A DNA stretch of 64,000 nt. Origin: Chiloscyllium plagiosum. Its lineage: Eukaryota. Where the stretch lies: assembly GCF_004010195.1 (NCBI RefSeq), contig NC_057711.1, forward strand, positions 49,107,847-49,171,846, given 5' to 3'. This document shows positions 3,905-61,757 of this stretch, one piece after another (position 1 is the first letter of the stretch; each line of letters starts with the position of its first letter). The position numbers and the translations under genes are program-made. The notes under the pieces were generated by a model that worked only from the letters and a program-made list of their open reading frames with translations, did no database searches and was not told the origin of the DNA.

Positions 3905-4585
3905 AAGGACCAAGTAATCGCATAAACACAATGGTTTCAAGAACAGGTCAAAGGCTAGGAATACCGATGTTAATAACTCACTTCCTGACTCTCCAGGGCC
4001 TGTCCACCATTTACAAAACACAATTTAGGAGTGTGATGGAATACTCCCCATTTTCCTGGATGGGTGTAGCTCCAACAACTCTCAAAAAGCTTGACACCAT
4101 CCGGAACAAAGCAGCCTGCTTGATAGGCACCACATCCATAAGTATCCTTTCCCTTCACCACTGATGCTCAGCGATGGCTGTGTGTACAAGATGCACTCCA
4201 GAAATTCACCAAAGACCTTTAAACAGTACCTTCCCAATCCACAAACACTTCTATCTAGATGGATAAAGGCAGGAGATACATGGGAACACTGCCACAGGTT
4301 TGACCACCTGTTCATCTATACCCTAGTGTTGTGTGATTTTTAACTTTGTAAACCCCAGTCCAACACCGGCATCTCCAAATCATGACTTGGAAATATATGA
4401 CTGTTCCTTCACTGTCATTGGATCAAAATACTGGAATTCTCTCCCTCAGGGTATCATGGATCAACCACATGAAATGCAGCGGTTCAAGAAGGCAGCTCAC
4501 TATCACCTTTTCAAGGGCAACTAGAGATGGGCAATAAATGCTGGTCAGCCAGCGATGCTAATGTCCTGTGAGTGAATTTTAAAAA
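3905..4585 (+). mobile_element. LINE family B (CR1/L2 group) 3' fragment
   Basis: GLSTIYKTQFRSVMEYSP..WM..APTTLKKLDTI.NKAACLIG; 3' end ttcaagaaggcagctcac...gggcaataaatgctgg. Contains a small PLE family C fragment at ~4293-4385. Confidence 0.85.
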
Positions 4586-4900
4586 GTATATAATAAATTC
4601 TTGCTATGTTAATATAGTCGCCTAAAAATGAAAGAAAAGATATTTGTAACACTGAAGGTTTATTTTAATTGGCTGTTAAGTACAATAATGAAGTTTGTCT
4701 AATTATTTATTTGATATGAACTGTTCTTTAATTGCAGCACAATTCAGGATAACTAGTGATGAGAAGATGACTTACTGGCTCATTATCTTTTAAAAGGACT
4801 AATTGTGTCTATAATTAACTAAAACCTGTGGTACATCTATGTGCTTATAATTACAGATGTCTGTATGTGATGGATGAAAACCTGTACTATCTATAATCAC

Positions 4901-4914
4901 ATTGCCATGGCAAC
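4901..4914. promoter_or_regulatory. RFX X-box-like palindrome
   Basis: attgccatggcaac, 13/14 match to GTTGCCATGGCAAC, in unique sequence. Confidence 0.4.
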
Positions 4915-6079
4915 AATGTATTCTATTTGATGGCACTATGAATTTGAACTGTCCTTTTTCTCATGTGTCTAAGTACTTCAACATCTCTCTGAACTGCTCT
5001 GTTAAACCATGAATATTCTTCATGTATTAGATAAACTTATCTATGCAGCATCTCTTCCCCATGGTCAGATCAGCTCCATCTCCAAACACATGTATGTGTG
5101 TTCTGACATACCCTGAAGTCAGATATCAACACCTTTTCACTCAGAGATGGCAGCAGGGAACAAAAAGAGTGAATGTAAGAAAGCTTTGGGACTGGGTCAC
5201 TGTGCTGGCCTTGTAGCTAGCCAGACAAGCGTACCAACTGTGATTAAAAACACAGTCTACACATCTCTCAGACAGTGGATGCCCCAGGGCTATCCCAGAA
5301 GACTATGTGCACAATGCATTTGAGTCACCAAGGTGGCAATTGAACCTCTTCACAGTTCTGAACTGTGAATGTATGCAATGAGAACATTAAGAGGTGAAAT
5401 GTCAAGGTTACCTCCTTTTGCCTGCACGAGACTGAAGTTTGTGAAAGAGGCTGCTGCCGATGTCATCAAGCAGTGCATACACCAAGCAGATATTTCTGAG
5501 TATATTTTCCATTCTTAATCAGTTTTTATGCTGATTTGATGTTTTTGTTGAAATCACCATTTGAAAATTAAATCACATTGTTCCTTAATTGTAGCAGAAT
5601 TGGTATGCATGAATGTTAATAATTGCAATTACATTTTTATAATAAAGGAACATTCCATTTTCACAATGTCATAGAATCATCTTCCCTTTTAGCCAGTGAA
5701 TCTCATAAATGAAATTAAGTCTTTACAATTCAGAAGTTAAATCTTTGCTATATTCTGTACTTAACAGGACTATATGTCTCTTCAACTAACAATTACACTA
5801 TCTGCAGAAATTTGCAAGCAAACTTCCAACAGAATCATTATGACTGCATTGACAAGTGGTTTAATAGAAGTAAAACACACAGTCCCATGGATTAGCTACC
5901 TGTCGGACTGTAATTGCAATTTTATGAAACTTAACAATTCCAGATAATTTAATTGCTGAAAAAAGACACATTTTATCTAAACTTTTGGTCTTACGCTCAT
6001 CAAGACGATTGACGAGAAATGCCAAATTAAAGAGTCAAGGTCAGAAAATATGCTCTTTCTGTTGAATGTGGGAGATTAG

Positions 6080-6300
6080 GGAGAGTTTCCACGTTACTGC
6101 AGTAAGTGTGTTTACCAGAGGAAGTGGTGGAGGATGATACGATTACAACAATTAAAAGGCATCTGAATGGGTATAAGAAGGGTTAGTATGATTATAGGCC
6201 AAATGCTGGCAAATGGGACTAGATTAATTTAGGATATCTGATTGATGTGGACAAGTTGAACCGAAGGATCTGTTTCCATGCTGTACATCTCTATGACTCT
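6080..6300 (+). mobile_element. CR1 LINE 3' end
   Basis: ccagaggaagtggtggagg...ggcaaatgggactagattaat...tgtttccatgctgtacatctctatgactct; same tail as the 20561-21463 copy. Confidence 0.85.
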
Positions 6301-6502
6301 AAGTTTACAACACCCGGTTATAGTCCAAAAGGTTTATTTGAAATGACAGGCTTTCGAAGCATACTCCTTTGTTCAGTGAAGTTCAGGTGATGGAGCAGCG
6401 CTCCAAAAACTTGTGATTTCATGCAAACCTGTTGGATTATAACCTGATGTCATGTGACTTCTGACCTTGTCTACCCCAGTCCAACACCAGAACATCCACA
6501 TC
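6301..6502 (+). mobile_element. Fold-back PLE terminal-repeat insertion (family C), decayed
   Basis: Inverted arms (ggttatagtccaaaaggtttatttgaaat / atttcatgcaaacctgttggattataacc), helix ggagc-agc-gctcc, and an unpaired tail ccccagtccaacacc also seen at ~4353-4385. Confidence 0.65.
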
Positions 6503-6785
6503 GAATTAAAGGAAAAATGCAATTTATGCTGCGTAAAAGGAATGTGCTGTTGGTTGGCAAGTAGACTTTGTATGACTGAACAATTGCTGAGGAGAATTAC
6601 TCCTCAGTTTAAATGTTGTTTTCCTTTTGGTGTTTCTTGTGAATTCTCCTCATTGTGCAAGATGGCCAACTTCAACACAATCCATCCTTTGTCAAAAGAA
6701 AACTCTCAAATAATTCAGCTGAGAACAGTTTCATTTTACATAACTTATCATTAGTATTTGTCCTACTATATCCTGTATACATTTA

Positions 6786-6996
6786 CAGGGGGTCTCCAAT
6801 TTGTGAACATCTGACTTACAAATGCTTGCACTTACAAATGCAATCCCATGCAAGGGTGTAATTTTAAAGACTTAATTCAAACATTTCCTTTACCTACAAA
6901 CAACTGCTTTTATATTATACTGCATTTCGATTTGTGCACAAACAGACTTGCAAGTGGACTTAGGAATAGCATTGTTCGCAACACAGGGACTGTCTG
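6786..6996. mobile_element. Tigger/pogo-like MITE, old
   Basis: TA|cagg...tctg|TA ends with degenerate TIRs (gtctcc..ttgtgaac / gttcgcaa..gggac) and internal acttacaaatgc repeats. Confidence 0.55.
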
Positions 6997-7405
6997 TAGC
7001 TAACATTATCATTATTTCGAACACCTGAAAAAAACAATGCAATAAACAAGAAAATATTCTCTAATATACAATTTAATTTTCCTAGCCATACAAATTATAC
7101 ATTTAGCTTCAATTGATTGAAATTCCAAAGACATACTTGACACCTGCATTATATTAAAGTTCGGATTGGTTTAACACTTCATTTTAAAATGCCTTAAACA
7201 TTCCTCTATGGAACCTGTCATGTGAAAATGCTCAGTCTTCCTTGTTGAATTCATTTTTTTGTACAATCATGTTCTTTTTTACCTTCACGGTTAATTAGGC
7301 CATTCACATTTTTGTTTTGTTTTGTGATGTTACTAATCCCAATGCATTCAAATTACTGGCTTTTTTTTACATTCATTCAGGGAATGTAGGATTCACTGGC
7401 GAGGC

Positions 7406-8220
7406 CCCACCACAGAACACACCAGATGGCCTCCTTCTTTAGAGACCGCAATTTCCCTTCCCACGTGGTTAAAGATGGCCTCCAATGCATCTCGTCTACA
7501 TCCCGCACCTCCGCCCTCAGACCCCACCCCTCCAACCCGTAACAAGGACAGAACGCCCCTGATGCTCACCTTCCACTCTACCAACCTTCGCATAAACCAA
7601 ATCATCCACCGACATTTCCGCCACCTCCAAACAGACCCCACCACCAGGGATATATTTCCCTCCCCACCCCTTTTCACCTTCCGCAAAGACCTGGGGAAGA
7701 CAGTGTATTATATCCAGTAAATGTGAAATACTTTAGAAGCAGTATTTTCCTCAACATCAAGATACAGTTTTATATTCAGTTGATGGAAGAGCCCTCTATT
7801 CCAACCCTTATAACCCCTCATACAGCCACCTTATGCTCATCCTACATTCACAGTCATAACTGCTTATGGCCCATCATTCCTCTCATGACCCCGACTCCCC
7901 TGACCATTACCCTGGGTCCCCTGACCATTACCCCGGGTCCCCATGACTTGTCCGGACTTGTCCGACCTGCCTATCTCCTTTTCCACCTATCCACTCCACC
8001 CTCTCCTCCCTGACCTATCACCTTCATCCCCTCCCCCACTCACCCAATTGTACTCTATGCTACTTTCTCCCCACCCCCACCCTCCTCCAGCTTATCTCTT
8101 CACGCTTCAGGTTCACTGCCTTTATTCCTGATGAAGGGCTTTTGCCCGAAATGTCGATTTTGAAGCTCTTTGGATGCTGCCTGAACTGCTGTGCTCTTCC
8201 AGCACCACTAACCCAGAATC
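7406..8220 (+). mobile_element. Composite Penelope-like insertion: ORF piece (7406-7691), unrelated filler, then 3' terminal repeat
   Basis: MASFFRDRNFPSHVV...NKDRTPLMLTFH...IIHRHFRHLQTDPTTRDIFPSPP is a PLE thumb/linker region. 7940-8220 resembles the 3' end at 30370-30620. It interrupts a minus-strand LINE B tail. Confidence 0.85.
8128..8155 (+). ncRNA. Minimal hammerhead ribozyme core
   Basis: CUGAUGA-A-GGGC-UUUU-GCCC-GAAA-UGUC. Confidence 0.65.
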
Positions 8221-9560
8221 AATATTTATTGTCTATCTTTAATTATCTGTGAGAAAATGATGCTGAGCTGTCTATTTTGATCAGTTGGTGTAGGTACAGT
8301 GCTGGGGTCACAGTGTTGTTAGGAAGTGAGTTCCAGGATTTTGACTCAGTGACAGTGAAAGAACTACAATATATATCCAAGTCAGGATGATGTGCAGTTT
8401 CCAAAGGAACTTGCAGATGGTGATGTTCCTGTGTATTTACTGCACTTCTACTTCTGATGATATTGGTTGTGGGTTTGGAATGTGCTGTCAAAGGAGACTT
8501 GGTGAATTTCTGCAGTGCATCTTGTAAATGGTAGATACTGCTGTGACTGAGCAATGGATGTTTTTTGGGTATGTTGCCAAGCAAGTGGGCTGTTTGGTCC
8601 CAAATAGTGTAAGTCATATTAACGATTGTTGGAACTGTAGTCATCCAGGCAAGCTGGGGATATTTCATTACGGTCCTAACATGTGTTTTGTAGCTGGTGG
8701 ACAAGCTTAGCGAGTCAGAATGTGAGTCACTCATTGCAGATTCTTAGCCTCTGATCTATTTTGTAGCCACATATTTACATGGCTACTCCAATTCAGTATC
8801 TGGTCAATGGTAACCCTCAGGATGTTGATAGTGGGGGATTCAACAATGATCAAGTCTCAATGTCATGTGATGATGGTTAGTTTCTTTAGTCAGTGGAGAT
8901 GGTCATTGCTTGGCACTTGTGTGTAATAAGTATTTGTTTGCCACTTGTCAGCCCAATCCCAATATTGTTCAAGTCTTGCTGCAATTAATTCGAACTTCAA
9001 TGTCTGAGATATCATGACTGGTATTGAACATTGTGCAATCATCAGCAAATATCCCACTTCTAACCTTATGATGGAGGAAATGTCATTGGTGAAGCAGCCG
9101 AAGATATTTGGGTCTGGGACACCACCCTGAGGAATTCCTGCAAGATGTCCTGGATCTGAGATGACTGATCTCCAACACCACCAACTCGCTTTCTTTGTGC
9201 CCGGTATGGTTCCAACCAATGGAGCATTTTACTTTGATTTCCATTGACTAAAGGTTTTGCTCAAAACACTCAGTCAAATGCAGTTTTGATGTCAAGTGCA
9301 GTTACATCACTTCACTTCTAGTGTATTTTTTTTTGTCCATACTTGAACCAATGTGCTAATACAAACCAAACATTAGCATCAGTGAGCAAGTTATTGCTAA
9401 ACCAATGCTGCTGGATAGCAATATTGATGGCCCCTTCCATCAATTCAATAATGATCGAGTTTAGACTGATGGGACAGTAATTGACTGGGTGGATTTGTCC
9501 TGATTTTGTGTACTGGATATACCTGGGCTATTTCCACATTGTTAGATGCCTGCCAGTCTG
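8221..9560 (-). mobile_element. LINE family B (CR1/L2 group), decayed; its extreme 3' end lies at ~7370-7405
   Basis: Minus-strand motifs GIPQGGVPDP.IF.CF.ND and LSTSYKTHVRTVMKY; homologous to 3905-4585 and 21464-23870. Confidence 0.85.
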
Positions 9561-13661: not shown

Positions 13662-13900
13662 GCCTATCACCTTTACCCCTTCCTCTATCCATCTATTGCA
13701 CTCCCAGCTACCTTCCCTGCAGCCCCACGCCCTCCCATTTATCTCTCCACCCCCGAGGCTTCCAGCCTCATTCCTGATTAAGGGCTCCTGCCTGAAACGT
13801 TGATTTTCCTGCTCCTTGGATGCTGCCTGACCTGCTGTGCTTTTCCAGCGTCACTCTAATCTTGACTCTGATCTCCAGCATCTGCAATCCTCACTTTCAC
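13662..13900 (+). mobile_element. PLE family A 3' terminal repeat without an inverted arm
   Basis: Homologous to 30430-30660; mutated ribozyme core ctgattaagggctcctgcctgaaacgtt at 13774-13801. Confidence 0.85.
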
Positions 13901-15061
13901 CAAATAAATAAGATTCAGCCTTCTGAATGACTGCTGCCCACAATTTTAACCTTGCAACATAAAACACATTTTATCCCTGCCTTTTTCTAAAGGCAGGAAT
14001 AATTATAATAACATAACTTAATCATCCCATTACTTGGATCATGGTGAAATTGACCCTCTGATTATCAAGCGCATCACATGTACCTTGGAAGGCACTCATT
14101 CAAATATCATCACTTGGGCACTTGATGTTAAGAAATTTATAATTGAATGTTTTCAGTGAAATGATAATGTTTCTTTGCTCTTGGTCACAAACCTCTGACT
14201 TTCTCCCTCCTGAAGAACATTAGAATTCATTTTGTTGCATCCAAATTTCACTGCTTATCTTTGTAATACAGTCTCTTTTAGACTTTGTTATGTGTAAGGG
14301 CATTGAGGATGTGAGGTTGAACCGGTGAACAAATGCACTACACAGTCACTTGAAAACCTAATCTACTTCTGCTACCTGTGGTTCAGTCAGGTACCAGACG
14401 CTCTGTATATTTCTTCATAATATTTATAATAAGTCAAACCATTACAATGGCAGAGAGAGGGATGTCTCAGAGCAAATAAAATGTAGCTTTTCGGTCATCA
14501 GAACATGATACTAATGATATCTAATCCCCTCCAGGCCTTTCTCTGTCTGCTGTCTCAGATAAAAGATTTGATCGAAACATGACTTCCCCAGTGAAATCCA
14601 AACAAAGTATTTTGCAGTTTGGTGCCTACCATGTCTCCTGGCCAAATGTAACATTCTGTGCAATAGATAGGCAAAGAAGATGCAAAGGTAGGAAGATTTC
14701 ATCTCCCCACTCGGTACAGCAAAATCATAAACTGCTAAAAAGATCAATGATTCTATTGCACTAAATGCACATGTGAAAGCAAAGTGTAACCTCCCTATAT
14801 TCATGCTTGTAAACATTTATGTTAAAGTACATTGAGATCACTTCACAAATTTTTGTTTGCAACAAGGTCAGTTTAAGACCCCATGTTTATCATACGATCC
14901 ATCTGATTTTTTGAGGATACAAATAAGAATCAATCCTGAGGTGCTTATTATGCTATTAATTTTTTGTGTATTCTATGTTTCAAATAGATGATAATCACAC
15001 AGAAATAAAAAACAGGAGTATGTAATTTATCCCACCAATTCACCATTTCGTGGGTGATTTT

Positions 15062-20560: not shown

Positions 20561-21463
20561 AGTGGACAGCAAAGAAGGTTACCTCAGATTACAAGGGGAT
20601 CTTGATCAGATGGGCCAATAGGCTGAGAAATGGTGGATGGACTTTAATTTAGATAAATGCGAGGTGCTACATTTTGGGAAAGCAAATCTTAGCAGGACTT
20701 ATACACTTAATGGTAAGGTTCTAGGGAGTGTTGTTGAACAAGAAGAACTTGGAGTGCAGATTCATAGCTCCTTGAAAGTGGAGTCGCAGGAAGATAGAAT
20801 AGTGAAGGAGGCATTAGGTATGCTTTCTTTTATTGGTCAGAGTATTGAGTACAGGAGTTGGGAGGTCATGTTGTGGCTGTACAGGACATTGGTTAGGCCA
20901 CGGTTGGAATATTGTGTGCAATTCTGGTCTCCTTCCTATCGGAAAGATGTTGTGAAAGTTGAAAGGTTTCAGAAAAAATTTACAAGGATGTTGCTAGGGT
21001 TGGAGGATTTGAGCTATAGGGAGAGGCTGAACAGTCTGGGGCTGTTTTCCTGGAGTGTCAGAGGCTGAGGGGTGACATTATAGAGGTTTATAAAATCATG
21101 AGGGGCATGGATAAGATACATAGACAAAGTCTTTTCCCTGGGGTGGGGGAGTCCAGAATTAAAGGGCATAGGTTTAGGGTGAGAGGGAAAAGTTATAAAA
21201 GAGACCTAAGGGGCAACTTATTCACGCAGAGGGTGATATTTGTATGGAATGAGCTGCCAGAGGAAGTGGTGGAGACGAGTACAATTGCAACATTTAAAAG
21301 GCATCTCGATAGGTATATGAATAGGAAGGGTTTGGAGAGATATGGGCCGGGTGCTGGCAGGTGGGACTAGATTGGGTTGGGATATCTGGTTGGCATGGAC
21401 GAGTTGGACTGAAGGGTCTGTTTCCATGCTGTACATCTCTATGACTCTATGACTCTATAACTC
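20561..21463 (+). mobile_element. CR1 LINE 3' ~0.9 kb, relatively young
   Basis: ORFs 20637-21068 and 21098-21370 are the CR1 ORF2 C-terminus split by a frameshift; (ctatgact)n tail. Confidence 0.95.
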
Positions 21464-23595: not shown

Positions 23596-23827
23596 AAAGC
23601 AAATTACTGTGGATGCTGGAATCTGAAACCAAAAGAGAAAATGCTGGAAAACCTCAGCAGGTCTGGCAGCACCTGTAAGGAGAGAAAAGAGCTGACGTTT
23701 CGAGTCTAACTGACCCTTTGTCAAAGCTTTGACAAAGGTCAGTTAGACTCAAAACATCAGCTCTTTTCTCTCCTTACAGGTGCTGCCAGACCTGCTGAGG
23801 TTTTCCAGCATTTTCTCTTTTGGTTTC
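23596..23827 (-). mobile_element. Near-perfect palindromic PLE family B insertion
   Basis: ~102-bp arms (23624-23726 / 23727-23828) with no loop (centre aagctt), a ~28-nt unpaired tail, and a perfect 15-bp TSD accttcccaaggata (23581-23595, 23828-23842). Confidence 0.9.
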
Positions 23828-23919
23828 ACCTTCCCAAGGATACCTAGTTTCAGGTATAAAATGCTGACCCAACCAGTGAAGTCCACGTCCACTGAACACG
23901 TTTTAAAAAAGAATGTCAA

Positions 23920-24575: not shown

Positions 24576-25995
24576 CCATGCAAACCTACCTTTGTTTCCA
24601 ACATTGATTAATTTACAGTCTCTTTCCAACTCTTTCTACATTCATTCCAGAACGAAACCAGTTTTTGCAAGATTTCATTTAACAGTAAAAAGGAGCACTG
24701 ACCCAGATATTAAATCAACATTTTGTTAACAAAGCAGCAAACCTTTCCTCGACAATATTGGTAACATTGAGAACATTCCAAATGATATAATTCATTACTT
24801 CTGGCTGAGTTTAATCATGACCCAAGTCTCTTCATTCGAACAAAGTTCAGCAAAGGAATCTTTCATTAAAGCTGAAGGTCATCGTCACCTCCCTTTGATA
24901 TGTCAGAATTGATGTAATTCAGATTGTGAAAGTCAGGTTATTTAACTTTGTTGGAATTTGTATGATTTCTTGGCAACAAAGTCATCTTTAATAAAATTTA
25001 TAATTTTCAAGTTATACATGTGAAATCTACATGATAGACCTAATTATTAGTCAGAAACTCTCCTGGTTTAATTTGTTTCCAAAGTCTGGCTCCACATTTT
25101 TTCATTATTTTCTTCTCTGTTTAAATCCCATAGCATATTTTCAAAATGATGATATATAATTTTTAGGTTCTATGCTAAAGATTTAACTTGTATCAATTAT
25201 AATTGGACAGTCTGCTATGGAGAGAGATCATTATCTGACTGAATTATGTAAGGTATTTGCTGCTTCAGTTTCCCCAAGTCAGATTTCAACATGAAGTTGG
25301 GGAAATCCACACAATCTACTTGGATCTCACCACATCTCTGGGGAAATGTTAAAAAAACCCACAGGTTTCCACTATTTCTGGGAATTTCTTCTTTACCTTG
25401 CAAGGAGTAAAATATCTATCTGGCCAGTGTGGGATTTATCTTAAGTCATGCACTCATACACAACAGCAAGAAGGAGGATCCTGCATAATAGTATGTGTGC
25501 ACTAACCAGCACAAACATGGGTTGCATAACAGGCTTGGCAAATAACCTGAAGTGTTGAAGAATTTTCAATGTTTAAAAAAATCTGTCTTGCACAAGGAAT
25601 CAGTAGAACAATGATAGGACCTGGACAATCGAACCCATCTCCCCTCCAAGCATGCAACAGATTTCTTTGTTCATACCTAAGTATGCCACTCTCCCACTAA
25701 CCCTGTCAATTCTAACCAAAGGCTATTCCTTTGTTCTTATGTTTTCATGAAGACTCGCTCAATGGTGATTGTGATATATTTTCTTGTGTTAAAGTTAAAA
25801 CATAGTTGTTTCAATTCAAGTGTTTCTTTTCTTCAACTTTACAAGAAATTCTTCATTGACTGTAGGGAATGATTGTATGATAGGCTGATGAGACACAACT
25901 AAGCATTTTCATTTACCAAGGAGAACAATAATGACACACTTAGCTGTGTCACTCTTCTTTATTACAATAGCATTATTCCTTCCATCATAAGCACA

Positions 25996-26199
25996 GTCGA
26001 AGAGTATGGTGCTGGAAAAGCACAACCAGTCAGACAACATTCGGGGAGCAGGAGAGTCAACATTTCGAGGCTCCTAATGAAGAGCTTATGCTCAAAACGT
26101 CAATTCTCCTGCTCCTCAGATGCTGCTTGACTGGCTGTGCTTTTCCAGCACCATACTCTTCGACTCTGATCTCCAGCATCTGCAGTGCTCACTTTCTCC
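25996..26199 (+). mobile_element. Fold-back PLE family A insertion
   Basis: Arms gtcgaagagtatggtgctggaaaag / cttttccagcaccatactcttcgac; decayed core ctaatgaagagcttatgctcaaaacgtc at 26074-26101; no clear long TSD. Confidence 0.88.
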
Positions 26200-28769: not shown

Positions 28770-29034
28770 TTAATGGATGTGGGTTTTCTAGATATACCAG
28801 CATTTATTGCCTATTCCTAATTGCCCAGAGTGCAGTTAAGAGTCAATCACATTTCTGTGGGTCAGGAGTCACATGTTCGCCTACCTAAAGTACATGAGTG
28901 AACTAGATAGGTGTTTCTGACCATGTACAATGGATTCATGATCATCATTAGATCTTTAATTCCAGATTCTTTATTGAATTCAAATTCTACCATCTGCCAT
29001 GACAGGATTTGAACCCAGGTCCCCAGGACATTAG
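28770..29034 (-). mobile_element. SacSINE1/Deu-SINE-like element; its 5' head continues at 30676-30720 after the nested PLE
   Basis: B-box gggttcaaatcc on minus (~29005-29016); tail ccagcatttattgcctattcctaattgccc shared with LINE family B. Confidence 0.75.
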
Positions 29035-30660
29035 AGTCAAGAGTGTGGTGCTGGAAAAGTACAGCAGGTCAGGCAGCATCTGAGGAGCAGGAGAATCGAC
29101 GTTTTGGGCAAAAGCCCTCCATCAGAATGAGGCTGTGAGCCAAGGCAGTGGAGAAATAAATGGGAGGGGGCGTGGGGCTGAGGGGAAGCTAGCCGACAGT
29201 GTAATAGGTAGGTGGAGGTGGGGGTAATGATAATAGATCAGAAGGGATGGTGGAGCAAATAGGTGGGAAGGAAGATGGACAGGTAGGATAGTTCAAGAGG
29301 GCAGTGCCAAGCTGTAAGGTTGAAACTGGGATAAGGTGGGGGGGAGGGGAAATTAGGAAACTGGTGTAATCCAAATTGATGCCATAGGATTGGACGGTCC
29401 CTAGGCAGAAGATGAGGTGTTCTTCCTCCAGGAAGTGGAAATGGAGGAGGCCCAGCACCTGCATGTCCTCAGCAGAGTGGGAGGGAGGGGTTGAAGTGTT
29501 CCACCATGGGGGGTGGGGTTGGTTGGTGCGGGTGTCCCAGAAATGTTCTCTAAAGTGCTCTGTGAGAAGGCGTCTAGTCTCCCCAATTTAGGGGAGACCA
29601 CATCGGGAGCAACGGATACAGTAAATGACATGTGTGGAAGTGCAGGTGAAAATGAGATGTAGAAGGCTCCTTTGGGGCCTTGGATGGAGATGAGAGGGCA
29701 GGTGTAGGCACAGGTTTTATAGTTCCTGCAGTGGCAGAGGAACGTGCTGGGAGGAGACTTCCATATACATTGTATCATCTTTCGCCATTTCCACCACCTA
29801 CAAACGGACCCCACCACCCCTATCCGCTTTCCATAAAGACCGTTCCGTGTGCGACTACCTTGTCAGGTCCACACTCCTCAACAACCCAACCTGCCCTCCA
29901 GACACCTTCCCCTGCCACCGCAGGAATTGCAAAACCTGCACCCACACCTCCCCCCTCACCTCCGTCCAAGGCTCCAAAGGAGCCTTCCACATCCACTAAC
30001 ATTTCACCTGCACTTTCACACATCTCATTTACTGTATCTGTTGTTCCTGATGCAGTCTCCTCTACATTGGGGAGATAGTATGCCTACTTGCAGACTGCTT
30101 CAGAGAACATCTCTGGGACACCCACACCAACCAACCCCACCACCCTGTGGCCGAATGCTTCAACTCCCCCTCCCAAGCCGCTGAGGACATGCAGGTCCTG
30201 GGCCTCCTCCATTGCCACTCCCTTACCACCCGACACCTGGGGGAAGAATGCCTCATCTTCCACCTCGGGACCCTCCAACCCTATGGCATCAATGTGGATT
30301 TCACCAGTTTCCTCATTTCCCCTCCCCCACCTTATCCCAGTTTCAAACTGCCAACCTAGCACCGCCCTCATGACCTGTCCTACCTGTCCATCTTCCTACC
30401 CACCTATCCGCTCCCACCCTCCCCTCCGACCTATCACCATTACCCCCCACCTCCAGCCACCTATCGCACTCTCAGCTATCTTCCCCCAGACCCACCTCCC
30501 TCCCATTTATCTCTCCACCCCGAGGCTCCCAATCTCATTCCTGATGAAAGGCTTTTGCCTAAAATGTCGATTTGCCTGTGCCTCGGATGCTGCCTGACCT
30601 GCTGTGCTTTTCCAGCAACACACTCTCGACTCTAATCTCCAGCATCTGCTGTACTCACTT
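29035..30660 (+). mobile_element. 1.6-kb inverted Penelope-like element: minus arm 29035-~29755, plus arm ~29756-30660, GIY-YIG endonuclease pseudogene in both arms
   Basis: TFPCHRRNCKTC zinc knuckle and FTCTFTHLIYCICCS*CSLLYIGE...FREHL (GIY-YIG). Perfect 15-bp TSD tccccaggacattag (29020-29034, 30661-30675). Confidence 0.93.
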
Positions 30661-30974
30661 TCCCCAGGACATTAGCTGAGTTTCTGGATTAATAGTCCAG
30701 CAGTAGTTCCCCTCGGCTGTTGCTGCTCCATTTTAAAATATTGAATGTGAAATTACTCCTGTATAAATACTGAACTCTTTCACCTGAAACTCCACTCCAG
30801 ACATTTTTTTAACATAAGTCAACAGGTCAATTTCTCCTTGAAAGTTTTTTCAAGAATTTCAAGTAGACATTTTGAATATTTGTGTATTGCTATCTCAAAT
30901 ATATAATGACAAGGTTAATTTTCTTTTGATATTACAATTTAGTTACAATGGGCTAGTTAAAGCATCTGCCAGAA

Positions 30975-33560: not shown

Positions 33561-34246
33561 AGTAGCTGACCGACCACATCCAAGTCCATGTCCTTGACTT
33601 ACTGTGCTGGATCCTCCTAATCCAAAGTATTCTCCCTTGAATTGACTGAGGACTGCTGACAACCATGACAAGCTTCCTGGCTTCATGTACGCACTAAATG
33701 GCAAGGCAATGCTGCAGTATTGAGCCTGGTATCTTTGCCTAAGAACAATGCAGAATGACACAAGGTAAGGCAAGGCAGGGATGGGGTGAGCATCTGGGTA
33801 GGATCAAAATGAGTGAGCACTTAAGGCAAGCAAACAGCCCAGAGGTGCAACCTGATCCTGTCCATAAGACTGGTGCACGTCCTTCAGAACAAAGTGTCCT
33901 TGTCGTAGCATAACATTGAAAGTTGTCATCTCACACTGAGGTGCAGCATTGAAGTGCAGCAACATCCTGTAAGTGGGTCAGAGATATGCCAGGATGGTTC
34001 TTAGAGGCTGGTATATGTTGATGCCAATAAACATAGGTATGTGTCATAGCCACAGGGAGCATGTGGCTGTTGAATATGCCTACTGTCCCTCATGGATAAG
34101 CAGTGAGCTGTTGTCACCAGTTACCTGCTCTAACGTCTAGGTCTAGGATTCTCAGTGTTTGCTCATGGCAGGTTGTACAATGGAAAGCTACTTATTAATG
34201 AGGCAGGGTTTGCAGGAAATAAGTTTGTTGACAATAAATAATGACT

Positions 34247-34455
34247 GAAAATGTGTTGCTGGAAAAGCGCAGCAGGTCAGGCAGCATCCAAGGAACAGGA
34301 GAATCGATGTTTCGAGCATAAGCCCTTCTTCAGGAAGGGCTTATGCCCGAAACGTCGATTCTCCTGCTCCTTGGATGCTGCCTGACCTGCTTCGCTTTTC
34401 CAGCAACACATTTTCAGCTCTGATCTCCAGCAGCTGCAGTCCTCACTTTCTCCTC
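34247..34455 (+). mobile_element. Fold-back PLE family A insertion, young
   Basis: ~85-bp inverted arms; perfect 15-bp TSD caataaataatgact (34232-34246, 34456-34470). Confidence 0.92.
34306..34333 (-). ncRNA. Minimal hammerhead ribozyme core
   Basis: CUGAAGA-A-GGGC-UUAU-GCUC-GAAA-CAUC on the minus strand. Confidence 0.55.
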
Positions 34456-40812: not shown

Positions 40813-42296
40813 TGGCAACAGGAACACCAATGCTGGCCATATACCTCTTCCCAGTGAGACAGACAATTTCGTTCAGGGGACTGACTCCAAGCTGGTTGGC
40901 CCTAGCCAGTGTACTAAGCACAAGTAAGTAAAGGGTGACTTGGTGACAGGCTACCAGCCTCTGAGCAGTTATTTCACTGTGAATGAATTTTTTAAAAGCC
41001 CATGGTGAATAATGGGTGAGTTAGCATGGAAGATATGAGGGAAAAAGGAGCAGGTAGTCAAGCATGGGTTGGCATAAATTGGTATCATTTTGGCATGGAG
41101 GAAATAGAGTCATAATCTGGTGAAAGTTGTTGCTAGTAAATTTGTGCAGTTTTAATGAATCGTGTGATTAATTGGTGGGGCATGGCTTTTCACTTATTTG
41201 GCACAGACTTCAATGTAAATTATTACATCACACACACTAGAAATCATTAGTGCTTAATGACAAACAGCTTCATGATAACTTTAATTGATGCCAACATTTT
41301 ATTTCAACTCTGCATCATCCAAATGAAGATTTGAACTTGCATTCTCTGAATTGTTAGTCAAGTCACTGTTTATTACTTGGCTACTGGCTGATAAAAATGT
41401 TGAAGTAATTAAATGAAATGACAGAGAATCTGCAGGGAATGTCATGAATCACATGCTTAGCACATACTAAACGAAAACTGACTTTAAGATCTATCACAGA
41501 TCACTTTCAATATTTAAATCGACTCACTCACTAATCCACCTTTTTCAATTATAGCAGTTTTTAAGAAGAATACTTTTGTCTTCATTCTTAGAAAGCCTTG
41601 ATGAGCAGGCTATTAGGAGTTGGTTCCACTTCACATCTCTTACAATGTTTTTTGGATAAGCCTTTCAAAGCACATTAACCCAGCCAATCAGATTAATTGA
41701 TTCAATCAATCTTTCTACAAATGTCTTATAGCATATCAATTGTGTTTTGTTGGAGAATACCAATAGAGGTGCTTCTGAAACTATGATACACTTTGTTTTT
41801 ATCAGTGCATTGTCCATTATATCTGATAAATTACCATGTTTGCATTAATTACACTATAGGCTGCTTTGCAAATCCTACAGTTTTGTTTTGCAAGGAATGT
41901 GTAAACTGCTGATTTGCTATTTGTGAGTTCAGAGATTGTTGCGTGACATGCAAAGATTTTAAGACTCTATTCACTGCAATTGAATTTTCTACATTTTTTT
42001 TTTAAATTGCTTTGAGCTGACTCCTTATTTCTAGAGTTTAAAGTAACCAGTTTGAACACTAGAAAGGATTATTTTAACATGTGAAAGCATATACCATGGA
42101 TGCTGGATATTTGAAACAAAAACAGGAAGTGCTGGAGAAACACAGTAAGTCTGACAGCACCTGTGGAGAGAGAAACAGAGTTAATGTTTCAAATGCATAT
42201 GATCCTTCTTTGGAAATCCAAGGGAATGGAAAATAATGATTTTTTAAGCTGTTGATAAAGGGGGAGATAGAATAAGTGGAATAGATGGGGAGGGTT

Positions 42297-42515
42297 GAAA
42301 AATGTGGTGCTGGAAAAACACAGCAGGCCAGGCAGCATCCGAGGAGCAGGAGAATCGATGTTTCGGGCATAAGCCCTTCTTCAGGAAGCCTGAAGAAGGG
42401 CTTATGCCCAAAACATTGATTCTCCTGCTCCTCGGATGCTACCTGGCCTGCTGTGCTTTTCCAGCACCACATTTTTCAACTCTGATCTCCAGCATCTGCA
42501 GTCCTCACTTTCTCC
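42297..42515 (+). mobile_element. Fold-back PLE family A insertion with a ribozyme core on both strands
   Basis: ~90-bp arms with a 3-nt loop (cagg-aag-cctg); perfect 15-bp TSD tagatggggagggtt (42282-42296, 42516-42530). Confidence 0.92.
42357..42384 (-). ncRNA. Minimal hammerhead ribozyme core
   Basis: CUGAAGA-A-GGGC-UUAU-GCCC-GAAA-CAUC. The plus-strand twin (42390-42417) has GAAA mutated to AAAA. Confidence 0.6.
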
Positions 42516-43765
42516 TAGATGGGGAGGGTTCACAGAGCAAAAGACCAAGGGAGTGCTAATAATGGTAGAGGAGCGAGATTTAGAGACAGTGACTGAGGAA
42601 GAAGATGTGGCTGTGGAAATGAGTTTTGGTAAACACCTTTTCAAGCACTAGCAGCATACCCTCCCTATCTGTTACTTTGTTAATCACCGAAAAACCATCA
42701 TTTTCAAGCGCCATTCAGTTTCTGGAGAAGAATAATATTGGAACGTTCCTTTTGATTTTTTCCTCCAAAAATGCTACCAGATCTGAGTTTATCCAGCACT
42801 TTCTGTTTTTATTTTCATAATATATCTTTAATTCCTTTTGACATTACCACATTTTCTTTCCTCCAACATTGAATATTTTCTTCAAACCATCCATTCTGTC
42901 ATTCCACCTTATCCCACACTCACCTCCAATTTCCCTTCAAACCTTAACTGGTGAATTCAGAGTTTTTCATTGAGTGGTGACTATCTTATTTCCATGCATT
43001 TGTATGCCATTAAGTCCCCAACTCATGTTATTTGTATGTGATATCCAATTGGGCTCTCCTTCACCAAGAAACTACAGGGCACAAATTCCTGAAAACTGAG
43101 CAGTACCTGGCAACTGAAGCTCTCTGAATGCTTGTCCAATTCATGCTGCAATTGCTTTTTCATAACAGTTCCTGTGTATTCCATGGCCACCATCCTCCTC
43201 AACCCATCATCCACATACGACAGCATTGGTAAACTACAAGCCTCACCACATCACCATGCCTGCTCTCAAACTCAGGCACCGCTACAGCCCTTCAACAATT
43301 GACTTTGGAGCTCCAGGGCACCCATTACTTGCATGCTTCTGCACACAATGTACATCGACAATGTAGCTTTTGCGCTCACATGGACGGGTTCTCCCTACCT
43401 ACTCTATCCAACACACTAATGATTTTGAAAACCTCTATCAGCACTACTCTCAGTTTCTCTTCTTCAAGGAAAAAAGGCTCAAACTTTTGCTTTATTCCCA
43501 TAAGTGAAGTTTTCATCCCTGCAACCAATCCGGTAAACAACAATCTCTATGTTCGCATCTTTCCTACAATGTGGCAGCCAGAACAATATTCCAGCTGAAG
43601 TCTAATGACTGTCTTATCCAAGTTCAGTATCATCTCCTTGCTATTATAGTCTATGCACCTATTAATAAATACTGGATACTGTCTGGTTTACTTATTGTTC
43701 TGACCAGCTGTCATGCCAATCCAATGATCTATGCACAAATACATCCAGGTCCCTGTACTCCTGAA

Positions 43766-44536: not shown

Positions 44537-44750
44537 TTAAAAAGTGTGACACTTTAAGAGCACAGCCAATCAGGCAGCATCCATGGAGCAGGAAAGTTGA
44601 CGGTTCAAGCATAAGGTCTTCATTCCTGATGAAGCGTTTATGCTTGAAACATCGACTCTCCTGCTCCTCAGATCCTGCCTGACCAGCAATGCTTTTCCAA
44701 TGTCACACTTTTTGACTCTGATCTCCAGCATTTACAGTCTTCACTTTCTC
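44537..44750 (+). mobile_element. Fold-back PLE family A insertion, old
   Basis: Arms aaaaagtgtgaca / tgtcacacttttt; CTGATGA at 44626-44632; TSD ctgg(cg/tc)tgtaattgctg (44520-44536, 44751-44767). Confidence 0.85.
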
Positions 44751-55125: not shown

Positions 55126-55322
55126 ATTTTAAAAATCTTTAAACACATATTCTTTGGAAAAGCAATTTCTTATAATAAGAGGCTTGAGAGTTTACAGTTC
55201 TCAATTATGTCGTGCAGCACCAGAGTTAATTCCAATCTTTGAACTACCACAAGCATGGGCTTACGTTTTACTTCAGGTGTACTCCTGTACAAAAATCCAT
55301 TATAAATGTCCACTCATAAGGA

Positions 55323-55528
55323 CGGAGAAAGTGAGGACTGCAGATGCTGGAGATTAGACCTGAAAATGTGTTGCTGGAAAAGCGCAGTGGGTCAGGCAGC
55401 ATCCAAGGAGCAGGAGAATCGACGTTTCGGGCATGAGTTCCTGAAGAAGGGCTCATGCCCGAAACGTCGATTCTCCTGCTCCTTGGATGCTGCCTGACCT
55501 GCTGCGCTTTTCCAGCAACAATTTTCAG
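55323..55528 (-). mobile_element. Fold-back PLE family A insertion, youngest-looking copy
   Basis: Tail ggagaaagtgaggactgcagatgctggaga on the left; near-identical arms; TSD cactcataagga (55311-55322, 55529-55540). Confidence 0.92.
55441..55468 (+). ncRNA. Minimal hammerhead ribozyme core, intact
   Basis: CUGAAGA-A-GGGC-UCAU-GCCC-GAAA-CGUC; all core residues present, GUC cleavage triplet, palindromic ACGU in place of helix III. Confidence 0.7.
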
Positions 55529-57999
55529 CACTCATAAGGATGCATTGGTACTCATGATTGCCACTTGTAATCTCAGCTCATCGGAGTGGCCAGAACAAAC
55601 CTGAGAATGCTCTAAATTATACCAATAAACTATGTTGTAACATTAAAAGGAAGCAGCTTGAAAAATCTAAGGGTAACATTAAATCATATTAATATGAGGA
55701 CAATTGTGTACATTTTGGTGCCTCATAAAAACAGTTGGCATTTTATCATTTTCCCAGGCAGTATGATAAGATTTTGCTAGCCTAGCAGATAATCCATATT
55801 GATTTGTTATTTAGCATTGTTATTTATGAAAAATGTTGCATAAAATCATATCACAGAAGGCCCTCGCAATATTGCAAGGTCCATGGAAGAACAACATCAA
55901 CTTTTAAGGAGTTACTCTTCATTAAAAGAAAACCTGCTCGCTGAAAGGCACGTATCCCATCACATTTGAAATGTCACTGATGCACATTGAACCAGAGAAA
56001 CTTAGCGGTTCTTTCAGATTAAAACTACTAGTGGAGGAGGGGAGAATGTGATCTTTTGGATATGTAAACGGCCTACAGTTTAAATTATGGAAGCGTGATG
56101 TTCACTGTGCTGGAAGAGATAACATCAAGATAAATCTCAGAAATATACCTTCAGTCTTCATATAAAACCTACCAATGAACTTTCTTGTGTTTCCTTAATG
56201 AGGTCAAGTTGTAAATATATTTTAGTGTGCAAATAAGGCTCAGTTTTTATGATTTTATTTTCTTTCCATCAGAGAAAAATCTTTGTTTTTTTTGTCTTTA
56301 CCTTGATCTTATATTCCATACACAACTGATTCTTTTCATGTTGTAATTAAAGTACAGATAGAAGAGCTGAGATTCACTGGGAGCTGCAAAACAATAGCAG
56401 GAACAAATGAATTAATTATCACACCAAAGCACCTTTATATATAATCAATTACCCTTTTTTCCTTCAAATAAAGGGATGCCCCTTGAGTTTTATTCTTTTA
56501 TGGTTAGTCTCTTGTCAGAAATATACCCTTAAAAAGGATTATTAGTAAAACATTTCAAATATTGGGATAATTATGATTTTATTTTAGGATGCGAATATTA
56601 GCCTGCAATTTTAGACTTTTAAATGAGGTTAAATCTGAATGTACTAGAAAAAAACTAGATTACTTAAATAGAATGCAACAATCATAACTATTTTTAAAAT
56701 ATGCATTATAGATTTGCAAAGCATACGTATGTTGCTTTGGGAGCATAAATAAACAGGGAAAGAAAGCTAACATCGTCCTAAAATTTATAGATCCAAACAA
56801 CAATGACCTGAATAAAATCAGAAAGTTCCTATTTTATTTAGTTCTGTCTGAGCAATAGGAAGTAGATGTCATCAGTTTTCTTGCTTTGACTAATTAATGG
56901 ATACAATGTCAGATTTCCTTGTCTTGTTTGTTTTGAGGCTGTTTTGATGCCCAGCAAATAGTGCCATCTCTGCTATTTTTCTCAGGCCTAGGTGGGCATC
57001 ACTGTAGCAGCATTCAATTATGCATCTTTTTTCGTGAAAGTGATGGCAAAACCTTTATGTGAGGATATGGCCGAGGTTGTGGAAAATATCACGAGGACAT
57101 CCTCATCTTAGAAATGGTACATACACTGCAAGATGATGTCATTGCAGTTGCTGGGGGAGTTGGCACATTCTGTTGCTGATAGATTTGTTCAATGATTGTT
57201 TTTTACCATTTCACTTACTTGTTGGTTGCCACTGATATTGGATTTAAAATAGCTTTACTTTTGTCATAATATATTAAACATTGCTTTGTTTCTCATTATC
57301 TACATTTTACTACCTTCAAAATCACTGTAACATGGTGACATGAATTGTTTTCTGTTTTTGATCACAGCATTTTATTGCTTAAATATTGTACTTCCCATTA
57401 TGGAGGGAAATAGCTTGTTTTAATAGCTGCAGTTCAGAGCTTTAAGTTAGCAATCATATATCTTTAATGTGATAAAATAAGCCATAAATCATAATTCATC
57501 TTCTTTACATACTTTGTTTCTGATATTTCAGTGTATTTTTCATTCCTGCTTTCCAAAAGTAAACTCTTTCACTAACAGAAACAGGTCTAGAATCTGAACT
57601 TCAGATGAAATTACCTTTAATTCTGCAGGACAGGGGTGATTTAAGCAATTGCAATTTACAAGTTATTTCCCAGATGGTGTAGAATTCAATGAGATCTCAG
57701 CTAAAAGCAACACAAAAAATCAGCACTTAACAGATTAGGAGCCTTTGGAGCAAGGGTTAAGAAAAATGACTCTGCTTCATATTACAAGTGTACGTATTGT
57801 TTTGAGATATTTGGAAATTTAGAAACAGATTATTACTTCACCATTATACAAACTGATAGTGAGTTTTTGCTCCCTTCCTTTCATAATGAAATAGGTTGTC
57901 TTAAAAGCATGCTTCTGACTGGAAAATTCTTCTTTGTTGATGTTTCTGTTATTTATTAAACTGCAAGCTTAATAATATTTTGGACAGGTTACTATAAAA

Positions 58000-60872: not shown

Positions 60873-61030
60873 TTTGATTCCAATAATATGATAATATTTG
60901 TAGTTATTGAAGAGTGAACAGTTTACCAAGATCTAATCTTGGGATCCTCTTGATTCAACTTGAGTCTTTTATGTACTTTCCTGTATTCCTATCTGAAACA
61001 TGTGCCTGCACATAAGTTTTGCAAAGCTAA

Positions 61031-61757
61031 TTACAAGTGGAGTTCCGCAGGGATCAGTTCTGGGTCCTCTGCTGTTTGTAATTTTTATTAATGACTTGGA
61101 TGAGGGAGTCGAAGGGTGGGTCAGTAAATATGCAGATGATGCGAAGATTGGTGGAGTTGTGGATAGTGAGGAGGGCTGTTGTCGGCTGCAAAGGGACTTA
61201 GATATGATGCAGAGCTGGGCTGAGGAGTGGCAGATGGAGTTCAACCCTGCCAAGTGTGAGGTTGTCCATTTTGGAAAGACAAATAAGAATGCGGAATACA
61301 GGGTTAACGGTAGGGTTCTTAGTGAGATGGAGNNNNNNNNNNNNNNNNNNNNNNNNNNNNNNNNNNNNNNNNNNNNNNNNNNNNNNNNNNNNNNNNNNNN
61401 NNNNNNNNNNNNNNNCGAAGGATGAGGGGTGACTTGATGGAGGTTTATAAGATGATCAGAGGAATAGGTAGAGTAGACAGTCAGAAACTTTTTCCCCAGG
61501 TACAGCAGAGTGTTACAAGGGGACATAAATTTAAGGTGAAGGGTGGAAGGTATAGGGGAGATGTCAGGGGTGGGCTCTTTACCCAGAGAGTGGTGGGGAC
61601 ATGGAATGCGCTGCCTGTGGGAGTGGTAGAGTCAGAATCTTTGGTGACCTTTAAGCGGCAATTGGATAGGTACATGGATAGGTGCTTAAGCTAAGACAAA
61701 TGTTCGGCACAACATCGTGGGCCCAAGGGCCTGTTCTGTGCTGTATTGTTCTATGTA
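61031..61757 (+). mobile_element. Young CR1 3' fragment spanning an assembly gap
   Basis: SGVPQGSVLGPLLFVIFINDLDEGVEGWVSKYADDAKIGG...WQMEFNPAKCEVVHFG open without stops. Confidence 0.95.
61333..61415. other. Assembly gap (83 N)
   Basis: Run of n characters. Confidence 0.99.

Follow-up and report, generated by a model that had tools for sequence, protein, structure and literature searches.

Minimal hammerhead ribozymes occur in the pseudo-LTRs of metazoan Penelope-like elements (PLEs). In the examined portions of the main account of them (Cervera and De la Pena 2014, PMC4209133), they have a type I core with an extra base between positions 9 and 10.1, a G10.1-C11.1 pair, a palindromic 15.2-16.2 segment, a short helix I and a U3-A8 variant, and they lie mostly as single dispersed copies, some on opposite strands, with many families per genome. 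Apart from the length of helix I, which varies among copies, these features are shared by the copies described here. Also shared is the canonical layout of endonuclease-bearing (EN+) PLEs, which, in the portions of the sources examined (PMC8557442, PMC3846280), comprises an inverted 5'-truncated copy, a one-sided tail of 30-40 bp and a target-site duplication (TSD), as well as TATA and Inr-like elements in the pseudo-LTR (pLTR). The combination of a TATA box and an Inr-like element has been described in the rotifer pLTR (PMC3846280). How PLEs replicate, and what the hammerhead contributes to this cycle, are treated as open questions in the parts examined of two sources (PMC8557442, PMC11167929).

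The window analysed here is a stretch of 64,000 nucleotides of Chiloscyllium plagiosum DNA. At 55441-55468 on its plus strand lies an intact minimal type I hammerhead core, with exactly the sequence that an earlier sequence-only reading had given. Five tests were applied to each copy (core, GAAA, a 4-bp helix II, palindrome and UH), and the focal copy passes all of them. A search with the Rfam hammerhead families, which that reading had proposed as a check, returned no match at the gathering score in the 64-kb window. The focal motif is not due to chance, because controls on reversed sequence gave no match with either the descriptor or the 32-nt pattern described below. Helix I of this copy has 2 bp, its -4 base is missing, and RNA folding of the focal arm alone predicts this helix to pair with a probability of 0.02. 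The hammerhead motif belongs to a published class, and the finding as originally posed is ordinary.

The core is part of a 206-bp head-to-head PLE unit at 55324-55529 (Table 1). A 12-bp target duplication surrounds the whole unit, which is therefore a single insertion, and its inverted 5'-truncated copy, one-sided tail and duplication fit the EN+ PLE layout. This fold-back context and the duplication were absent from the sequence-only reading. As RNA, the insert is predicted to fold into one long hairpin with a minimum free energy of -164.5 kcal/mol; with the hammerhead helices forced, the value is -123.3 kcal/mol, a cost of 41 kcal/mol. The probability of helix II is 0 in the whole insert versus 0.99 in the forward arm alone. 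The focal copy sits head to head and not in a tandem array of at least two motif units, and the nearest same-strand family-A core in the window, at 44626, is decayed. Since folding places the motif in its own long hairpin and it is without a dimer partner, the focal copy is likely inert.

Table 1. Features of the focal insertion and of related insertions in the window (window coordinates).
Feature	Position	Strand	Remark
Focal hammerhead, CUGANGA-type core	55441-55447	+	extra A at 55448
Focal helix II	55449-55452 / 55457-55460	+	at least 4 bp; G10.1-C11.1 with extra 5' base
Focal GAAA	55461-55464	+	followed by palindromic ACGT (helix III remnant)
Focal U-H triplet	ends at C55468	+	predicted cut 3' of C55468
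TSD, left copy	55311-55322	+	12 bp; first base at right copy may be the element's
TSD, right copy	55529-55540	+	12 bp
Inverted arm	55324-55437	-	element ~+11 to tail end (+125)
PLE tail, ~36 nt	55324-55359	-	on inverted arm only
Forward arm	55438-55529	+	element -3 to short 3' end (~+88), without tail
Larger inverted family-A insertion	29026-30666	.	decayed cores 29125(-) and 30541(+); pseudo-LTR
Family-B fold-back	23618-23834	.	intact U3-A8 minimal hammerhead on minus arm from 23724
Family-A fold-back	34245-34455	.	15-bp duplication, one-arm tail
Family-A fold-back	42291-42517	.	15-bp duplication, one-arm tail
Old family-A fold-back, GAGC/GCUC subfamily	25992-26199	.	decayed core
Family-A pseudo-LTR copy	7955-8210	+	core 8128, palindrome decayed
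Family-A pseudo-LTR copy	13663-13902	+	decayed core 13774
Family-C fold-back, decayed	6307-6460	.	decayed core

Ten other family-A cores had been proposed in the window. All are real copies near the positions given, but none passes all five tests; in overlapping classes, four have a broken CUGANGA, four are without GAAA and seven without the palindrome. At the proposed family-C site (6392-6404) the helix is there but the core is decayed. The intact family-B copy on the minus strand, which the earlier reading did not contain, has a U3-A8 pair in place of C3-G8 and a helix I of 4 bp. The fold-back that holds it is centred on a self-complementary AGCT (-4 to -1) at which both arms stop, and each of the three family-B copies of near-full length in the sample begins at -4 to -2. 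The window also contains three stretches (1665-2288, 20622-21370 and 60997-61694) that resemble decayed CR1/L2-like LINE reverse-transcriptase fragments, and a run of 83 N at 61333-61415.

The PLE origin assumed for the motif is borne out by the coding sequences next to it. A reverse-transcriptase (RT) stretch in locus L068 matches PF00078 (E=2.5e-8), and the 3' repeat of this locus holds a CUGAAGA-type core like the focal one. The open reading frame (ORF) has a GIY-YIG-like end (Atlas score 0.96; PF01541 in 55% of one cluster), and the core follows 170-250 nt past the ORF end, with 22 matches from 30 ORF-selected loci. Both arms of the larger inverted insertion in the window carry the decayed 3' end of a PLE ORF, in which a C-x4-C-x2-C linker and a GIY-YIG-like domain are encoded, and there, as in loci L031-L070, the core comes after such an ORF end. 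The linker agrees with the definition of a C-x2-5-C-x2-C motif before a C-terminal GIY-YIG in the portion of the source examined (PMC8557442). Judged from these sequence features, the parent is an EN+ PLE, Neptune-like by its linker motif, a linker type that is also found in Nematis. Four copies run past the tail into a common sequence that resembles the beginning of an ORF. No intact full-length element was present among ten loci, in which the longest frames are N-gapped or broken; Pfam gave no match for six ORF fragments, and a PDB sequence search gave none for two fragments.

Abundance was estimated in a sample of 1,309,580 non-N bases, consisting of the window and 11 genome blocks picked regardless of the motif. 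In these 1.31 Mb, a strict minimal-hammerhead descriptor found 66 matches, against 0 in the reversed control, and 64 of the 66 lie inside repeat families. Across the 3.56-Gb genome, the 32-nt core pattern has 54,589 exact matches and its reverse 0. Descriptor-intact cores number ~50 per Mb, which extrapolates to ~170,000 genome-wide, and the arms of the family are estimated at ~600,000. The proposal that the genome is densely seeded from at least three PLE families holds for the density and for the families, of which six were seen, but not for activity of the scattered copies.

Among 113 full-core family-A copies, the proposed helix II covariation GAGC/GCUC recurs, with both sides changed in five copies (Fisher p=1.6e-4), and it looks like an old subfamily. 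The second proposed case, AGGC/GCCU, occurs in only one of the 113 and is decay. In these copies covariation is absent from the remaining three pairs of helix II; only the 9-18 pair covaries. Copies of family A do not preserve the core more strongly than its flank: non-CpG core positions score 0.95-0.99 versus ~0.91-1.0 for non-diagnostic flank positions, and CpG positions 0.74-0.88. This is as expected from neutral decay of genomic copies; apart from the 9-18 changes, the variation is CpG decay. Between families (majorities from 124, 3, 10, 11, 2 and 1 matches for A, B, C, D, E and F), the core stays constant, whereas compensating changes are seen in helix I, helix II, the palindrome (ACGU versus AGCU) and C3-G8. 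Because the core is fixed between families and decaying within family A, selection acted on the source elements and not on the copies. The palindrome is ACGT in families A, B and D and AGCT in C. Helix I has three of four pairs in most family-A subfamilies, with a U-U mismatch, and all four pairs in a single subfamily as well as in families B and D. In four copies with differing contexts (L247-L250), TTTT stands in place of CGTC after GAAA.

A few same-strand neighbours were observed, two of which are described here. In the first, a partial tandem (L111:2259-2593; G000:C15, minus), 334 bp separate two intact cores and the ORF start lies in between. In the second (G000:C10:30090181-30090225), the cores are 44 bp apart and the second restarts near -6, as if copying had repeatedly jumped back to the 5' end of the RNA.

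The strongest form of the earlier reading was that the scattered copies are themselves active and cut host transcripts. The density of descriptor-intact cores, the few same-strand neighbours just described and the fact that copies are read through in host RNA are on its side. Even so, we consider it highly improbable, since most copies are decayed, solitary or hairpin-locked. The focal copy is locked in this way, none of the ten other family-A copies of the window is intact, and no excess core conservation exists among copies. Moreover, single minimal motifs did not cleave in vitro in the portion of the original account examined (PMC4209133), and the anole motif required the element's protein according to the parts examined of that study (PMC11167929).

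The ends of the copies carry most of the information on how they arose. In 220 copies, with the anchor placed 3' of the predicted cut to make cut products visible, 62 of the 5' ends lie at -7 to -1 (mode -4/-3), 51 at 0 to +11 and 58 further upstream, with only five at the predicted cut (+27 to +29). When the 18 copies without extension beyond +36 are omitted, the stop rate per base is 0.074 at -7 to -1, versus 0.010 at -59 to -8 and 0.006 at +12 to +35. In a control for end mapping, the chance extension was 0-2 nt in 129 of 150 cases. The 51 ends at 0 to +11 require trimming or microhomology to fit a start at -4. The A+T fraction reaches 0.97 at -36 to -33 in 39 long copies, within an A+T-rich box that spans -36 to -31, and in family C, TATAAA-like boxes precede the most frequent start (A at -8) by ~30 nt. 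The C-A step at -5/-4 fits an initiator.

The base preceding ATTC was counted genome-wide in one young subfamily. Besides the templated C (13,092), G was found 2926 times, A 1413 times and T 543 times, so that G makes up 60% of the non-C bases versus 25% expected at 40% GC; 8,971 copies of this subfamily extend to -8. Perfect fold-backs with both arms ending there account for 20 of the first 100 A matches. None of the first 40 G loci continues into the pseudo-LTR; by eye, 15 are solo and 25 are fold-backs. In the 15 solo loci, the G lies within target microhomology in 11 and in neither target nor element in one. An untemplated G has been described as a mark of capped templates in L1 and SVA in the portion of the source examined (PMC4859970). 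Taken with the end positions, the stubs look like run-off cDNAs of a capped RNA front end. The G excess may come from target-site or partner-arm bias, the G being often readable from the partner arm in fold-backs. It is not visible among the 30 short ATTC copies of the 1.31-Mb sample (C 16, A 6, G 4, T 4). Two other candidates, a spliced leader at the -4 end and a separate G-bearing subfamily, were rejected: no AG precedes -4, and the upstream sequence in the 40 loci is target or partner arm.

The same pile-up could be produced on a longer RNA, with no start at this place, if the RT stalled or fell off at the end of the ribozyme fold and the G reflected target or partner bias. Helix I starts at the same base, the ends are scattered over -7 to +11, the G excess is unseen in the small sample, and no RNA start appears in reads: among 2,409 reads of a related organism (~2% of the run), no position has many starts or ends that would mark an RNA start or cut. 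In these raw reads, 93% of which continued into unlike sequence, the -4 position and the two 3' ends were again points where homology stopped. A stall is expected on entry into a structure, however, and not after leaving it, and it would not account for the TATA-like box ~30 nt upstream in two families or for L212 and several fold-backs, whose G belongs neither to the target nor to the element. The stalling explanation is thus judged fairly unlikely, and a run-off from a capped 5' end is the reading retained here.

Head-to-head pairs are common, with 74 of the 220 copies forming 37 pairs. The tail is on exactly one arm in 35 of the 37 (p=3e-9), and exact duplications of at least 7 nt flank 29 of the 37, against 6% in a swap control. 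Within the 35 pairs, the tail-less arm reaches further 5' in 19, the tailed arm in 12, and four are ties. As the tail-less arm has the longer reach in 19 of 35, neither arm of these pairs was copied from the other. This asymmetry favours two separately primed cDNAs, one for each nicked end and start site. It agrees with the anole enzyme: in the examined portions of that study (PMC11167929), the element's protein nicks and extends both strands, starting at two internal sites on mostly uncut RNA. For rotifer PLEs, self-priming on an antisense template has been proposed from junction palindromes, in the portion of the source examined (PMC3846280). Snap-back of one strand, or spread as a palindromic non-autonomous unit, would suit the recurrence of some junctions and the subfamily sites common to both arms (0.89 versus 0.56 for random arms). 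Yet each arm has sequence absent from the other in 19 of the 35 pairs, the focal pair included, and the junctions mostly differ, the recurrent ones being in different subfamilies. Such an origin of the fold-backs is considered unlikely; the arm and junction evidence argues against snap-back of a sense-templated cDNA and does not bear directly on the antisense-template version.

Further evidence comes from copies joined to U6. The best 48 scored matches represent 46 loci, 44 of which have a readable 3' end, and counts from this set are lower bounds. At least four loci (L257, L274, L284 and L291), with four sequence variants, have U6 joined exactly at +28 of family A, and in L286 it is joined to family E directly after the UH triplet of that family. 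Thus, five of the 44 readable loci among the matches listed have U6 at the predicted cut, and no joint was found elsewhere in the head regions of families A-D among the same 44. In L269 and L273, U6 is joined inside the PLE ORF, away from the ribozyme site. In the fold-backs L284 and L286 each of the two arms contains the fusion (one L286 arm differs by a base at the joint), as suits a chimeric RNA made before reverse transcription. One arm of L284 (G000:C31:9507064-9507915) holds two tandem U6 3' parts. Hammerhead cleavage leaves a product with a 5'-OH. RtcB joins U6 cyclic-phosphate ends to 5'-OH RNA, as described in the portion of the source examined (PMC6789731). Because RtcB needs such a partner, the joints, as specific though indirect evidence, make it likely that the motif cuts in the germ line in vivo.

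Plain insertions that end at the cut are less telling. Genome-wide they number 497, versus 284 and 387 at two neighbouring positions, so that the apparent cut ends exceed their neighbours by 1.3-1.75-fold at most; true ends were found in 7 of the 20 inspected, which were mostly point variants. A T-run search for U6 before the cut product of the young subfamily gave no fusion in 10 loci. The scarcity of plain cut ends would agree with a role for the motif in protein binding or as a promoter element, without catalysis; the joints to U6 would then stem from a protein nuclease or template switching at that bond. In the examined portions of the anole study, ribozyme mutants had no effect on insertion in vitro and no RNA-seq ends lay at the cut (PMC11167929), and some PLE clades are without the motif in the parts examined of another source (PMC8557442). 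A purely non-catalytic role is nevertheless very unlikely in our estimation: compensatory changes across families affect all helices and C3-G8, five U6 loci join exactly at the scissile bond, and template switching would still require an RNA end at that bond.

U6 was also seen next to other sequences. In L258 (G000:C17:47236055), its 3' end is followed directly by tRNA-like sequence, which looks like a U6-tRNA chimera. In L255, L262, L263, L267, L272, L275-L280 and several of L281-L295, it is followed by the start of an abundant SINE-like repeat, often with the SINE head upstream too; these loci are possibly chimeras or a preferred target.

Together, the copies can be arranged into a cycle. 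A capped transcript would begin 4 nt before the core, so that its first 32 nt would be the 5' part of the ribozyme. The element's protein would cut both DNA strands ~10-17 nt apart, as the duplications show, and reverse transcription would start inside the RNA at one of two sites, ~+90 and +125, where the two 3' ends lie. Internal initiation has been published for the anole element, in the portions of the study examined (PMC11167929). Where it starts on the 5'-end copy of the region, the enzyme would reach the end of the template within 95-130 nt, frequently adding an extra base by copying the cap, and leave a mass of short stubs. Where both DNA ends are primed, one per site, the two cDNAs would be joined head to head through microhomology and give the fold-backs. 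Most templates would be uncut, while a fraction of the RNA would self-cleave after the UH triplet, and its 5'-OH product would occasionally be ligated to U6 and then copied.

That the motif is a minimal type I hammerhead from the pseudo-LTR of an endonuclease-bearing PLE, with the 55441 copy as one arm of a single mirror-image insertion, likely inert, is considered probable, the stub and U6 mechanism included. For the wider claim the chances are about even. It holds that these copies are a fossil map of the PLE RNA cycle. The transcript would be capped 4 nt ahead of the hammerhead, and the stubs, several hundred thousand in number, would be strong-stop cDNAs aborted on the capped leader. Each mirror insertion would combine two of them, one primed from either DNA end, at the two tail sites, and the U6 fusions of two families would show that animal PLE hammerheads cut in the germ line with a ligatable 5'-OH. 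If true, ligatable 5'-OH ends would provide the step needed for the proposed circular intermediate. From the statistics of copy ends, transcription is predicted to begin at -4, uncut RNA to be the common template, each DNA end to use one start site, and cleavage to fall at +27/+28. The abundant hairpin inserts would also be a likely large source of dsRNA in host transcripts. The interest of the locus rests on these family-wide end statistics, which were not found in print within a limited literature search. That search gave no published description of strong-stop-type PLE cDNAs or of U6-Penelope ribozyme chimeras.

Several differences separate these copies from the known systems, of which only portions are considered here. 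Compared with the 4,000-9,000 minimal hammerheads of coelacanth and Xenopus (PMC4209133), far more are present here, and the examined portions of that account name no cartilaginous fish and hold no analysis of start site, cap or U6. Relative to the canonical EN+ PLE layout, the units are cut down to ~200 bp without an ORF. In the sources for that layout (PMC8557442, PMC3846280), the tail is attributed to resolution by the endonuclease and the inversion to self-priming; the arm asymmetry found here favours two cDNAs instead. With the Anolis carolinensis Poseidon element PAc (Frangieh et al. 2024, PMC11167929), our copies share two internal RT starts bounding the tail, nicking and extension of both strands, uncut RNA as the main template and a motif overlapping the ORF start region. 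PAc belongs to the Poseidon clade, while the linker here is C-x4-C-x2-C, as in Neptune and Nematis; moreover, PAc had no RNA ends at the cut, and 5' run-off ends are unreported in the examined portions of that study. Non-LTR retrozymes (bioRxiv 10.64898/2026.07.22.740005) are also PLE-derived with a type I hammerhead, and one chondrichthyan genome is reported to contain them, but they are tandem arrays by definition, unlike the focal copy and nearly all others here, which are solo or head to head. Finally, the U6/L1 chimeric pseudogenes made via RtcB (PMC6789731) likewise arose by retrotransposition after the 3' end of U6 had been linked to a retroelement RNA; the L1 joints lie at variable truncation points, whereas the head-region joints described here are all at the ribozyme bond.
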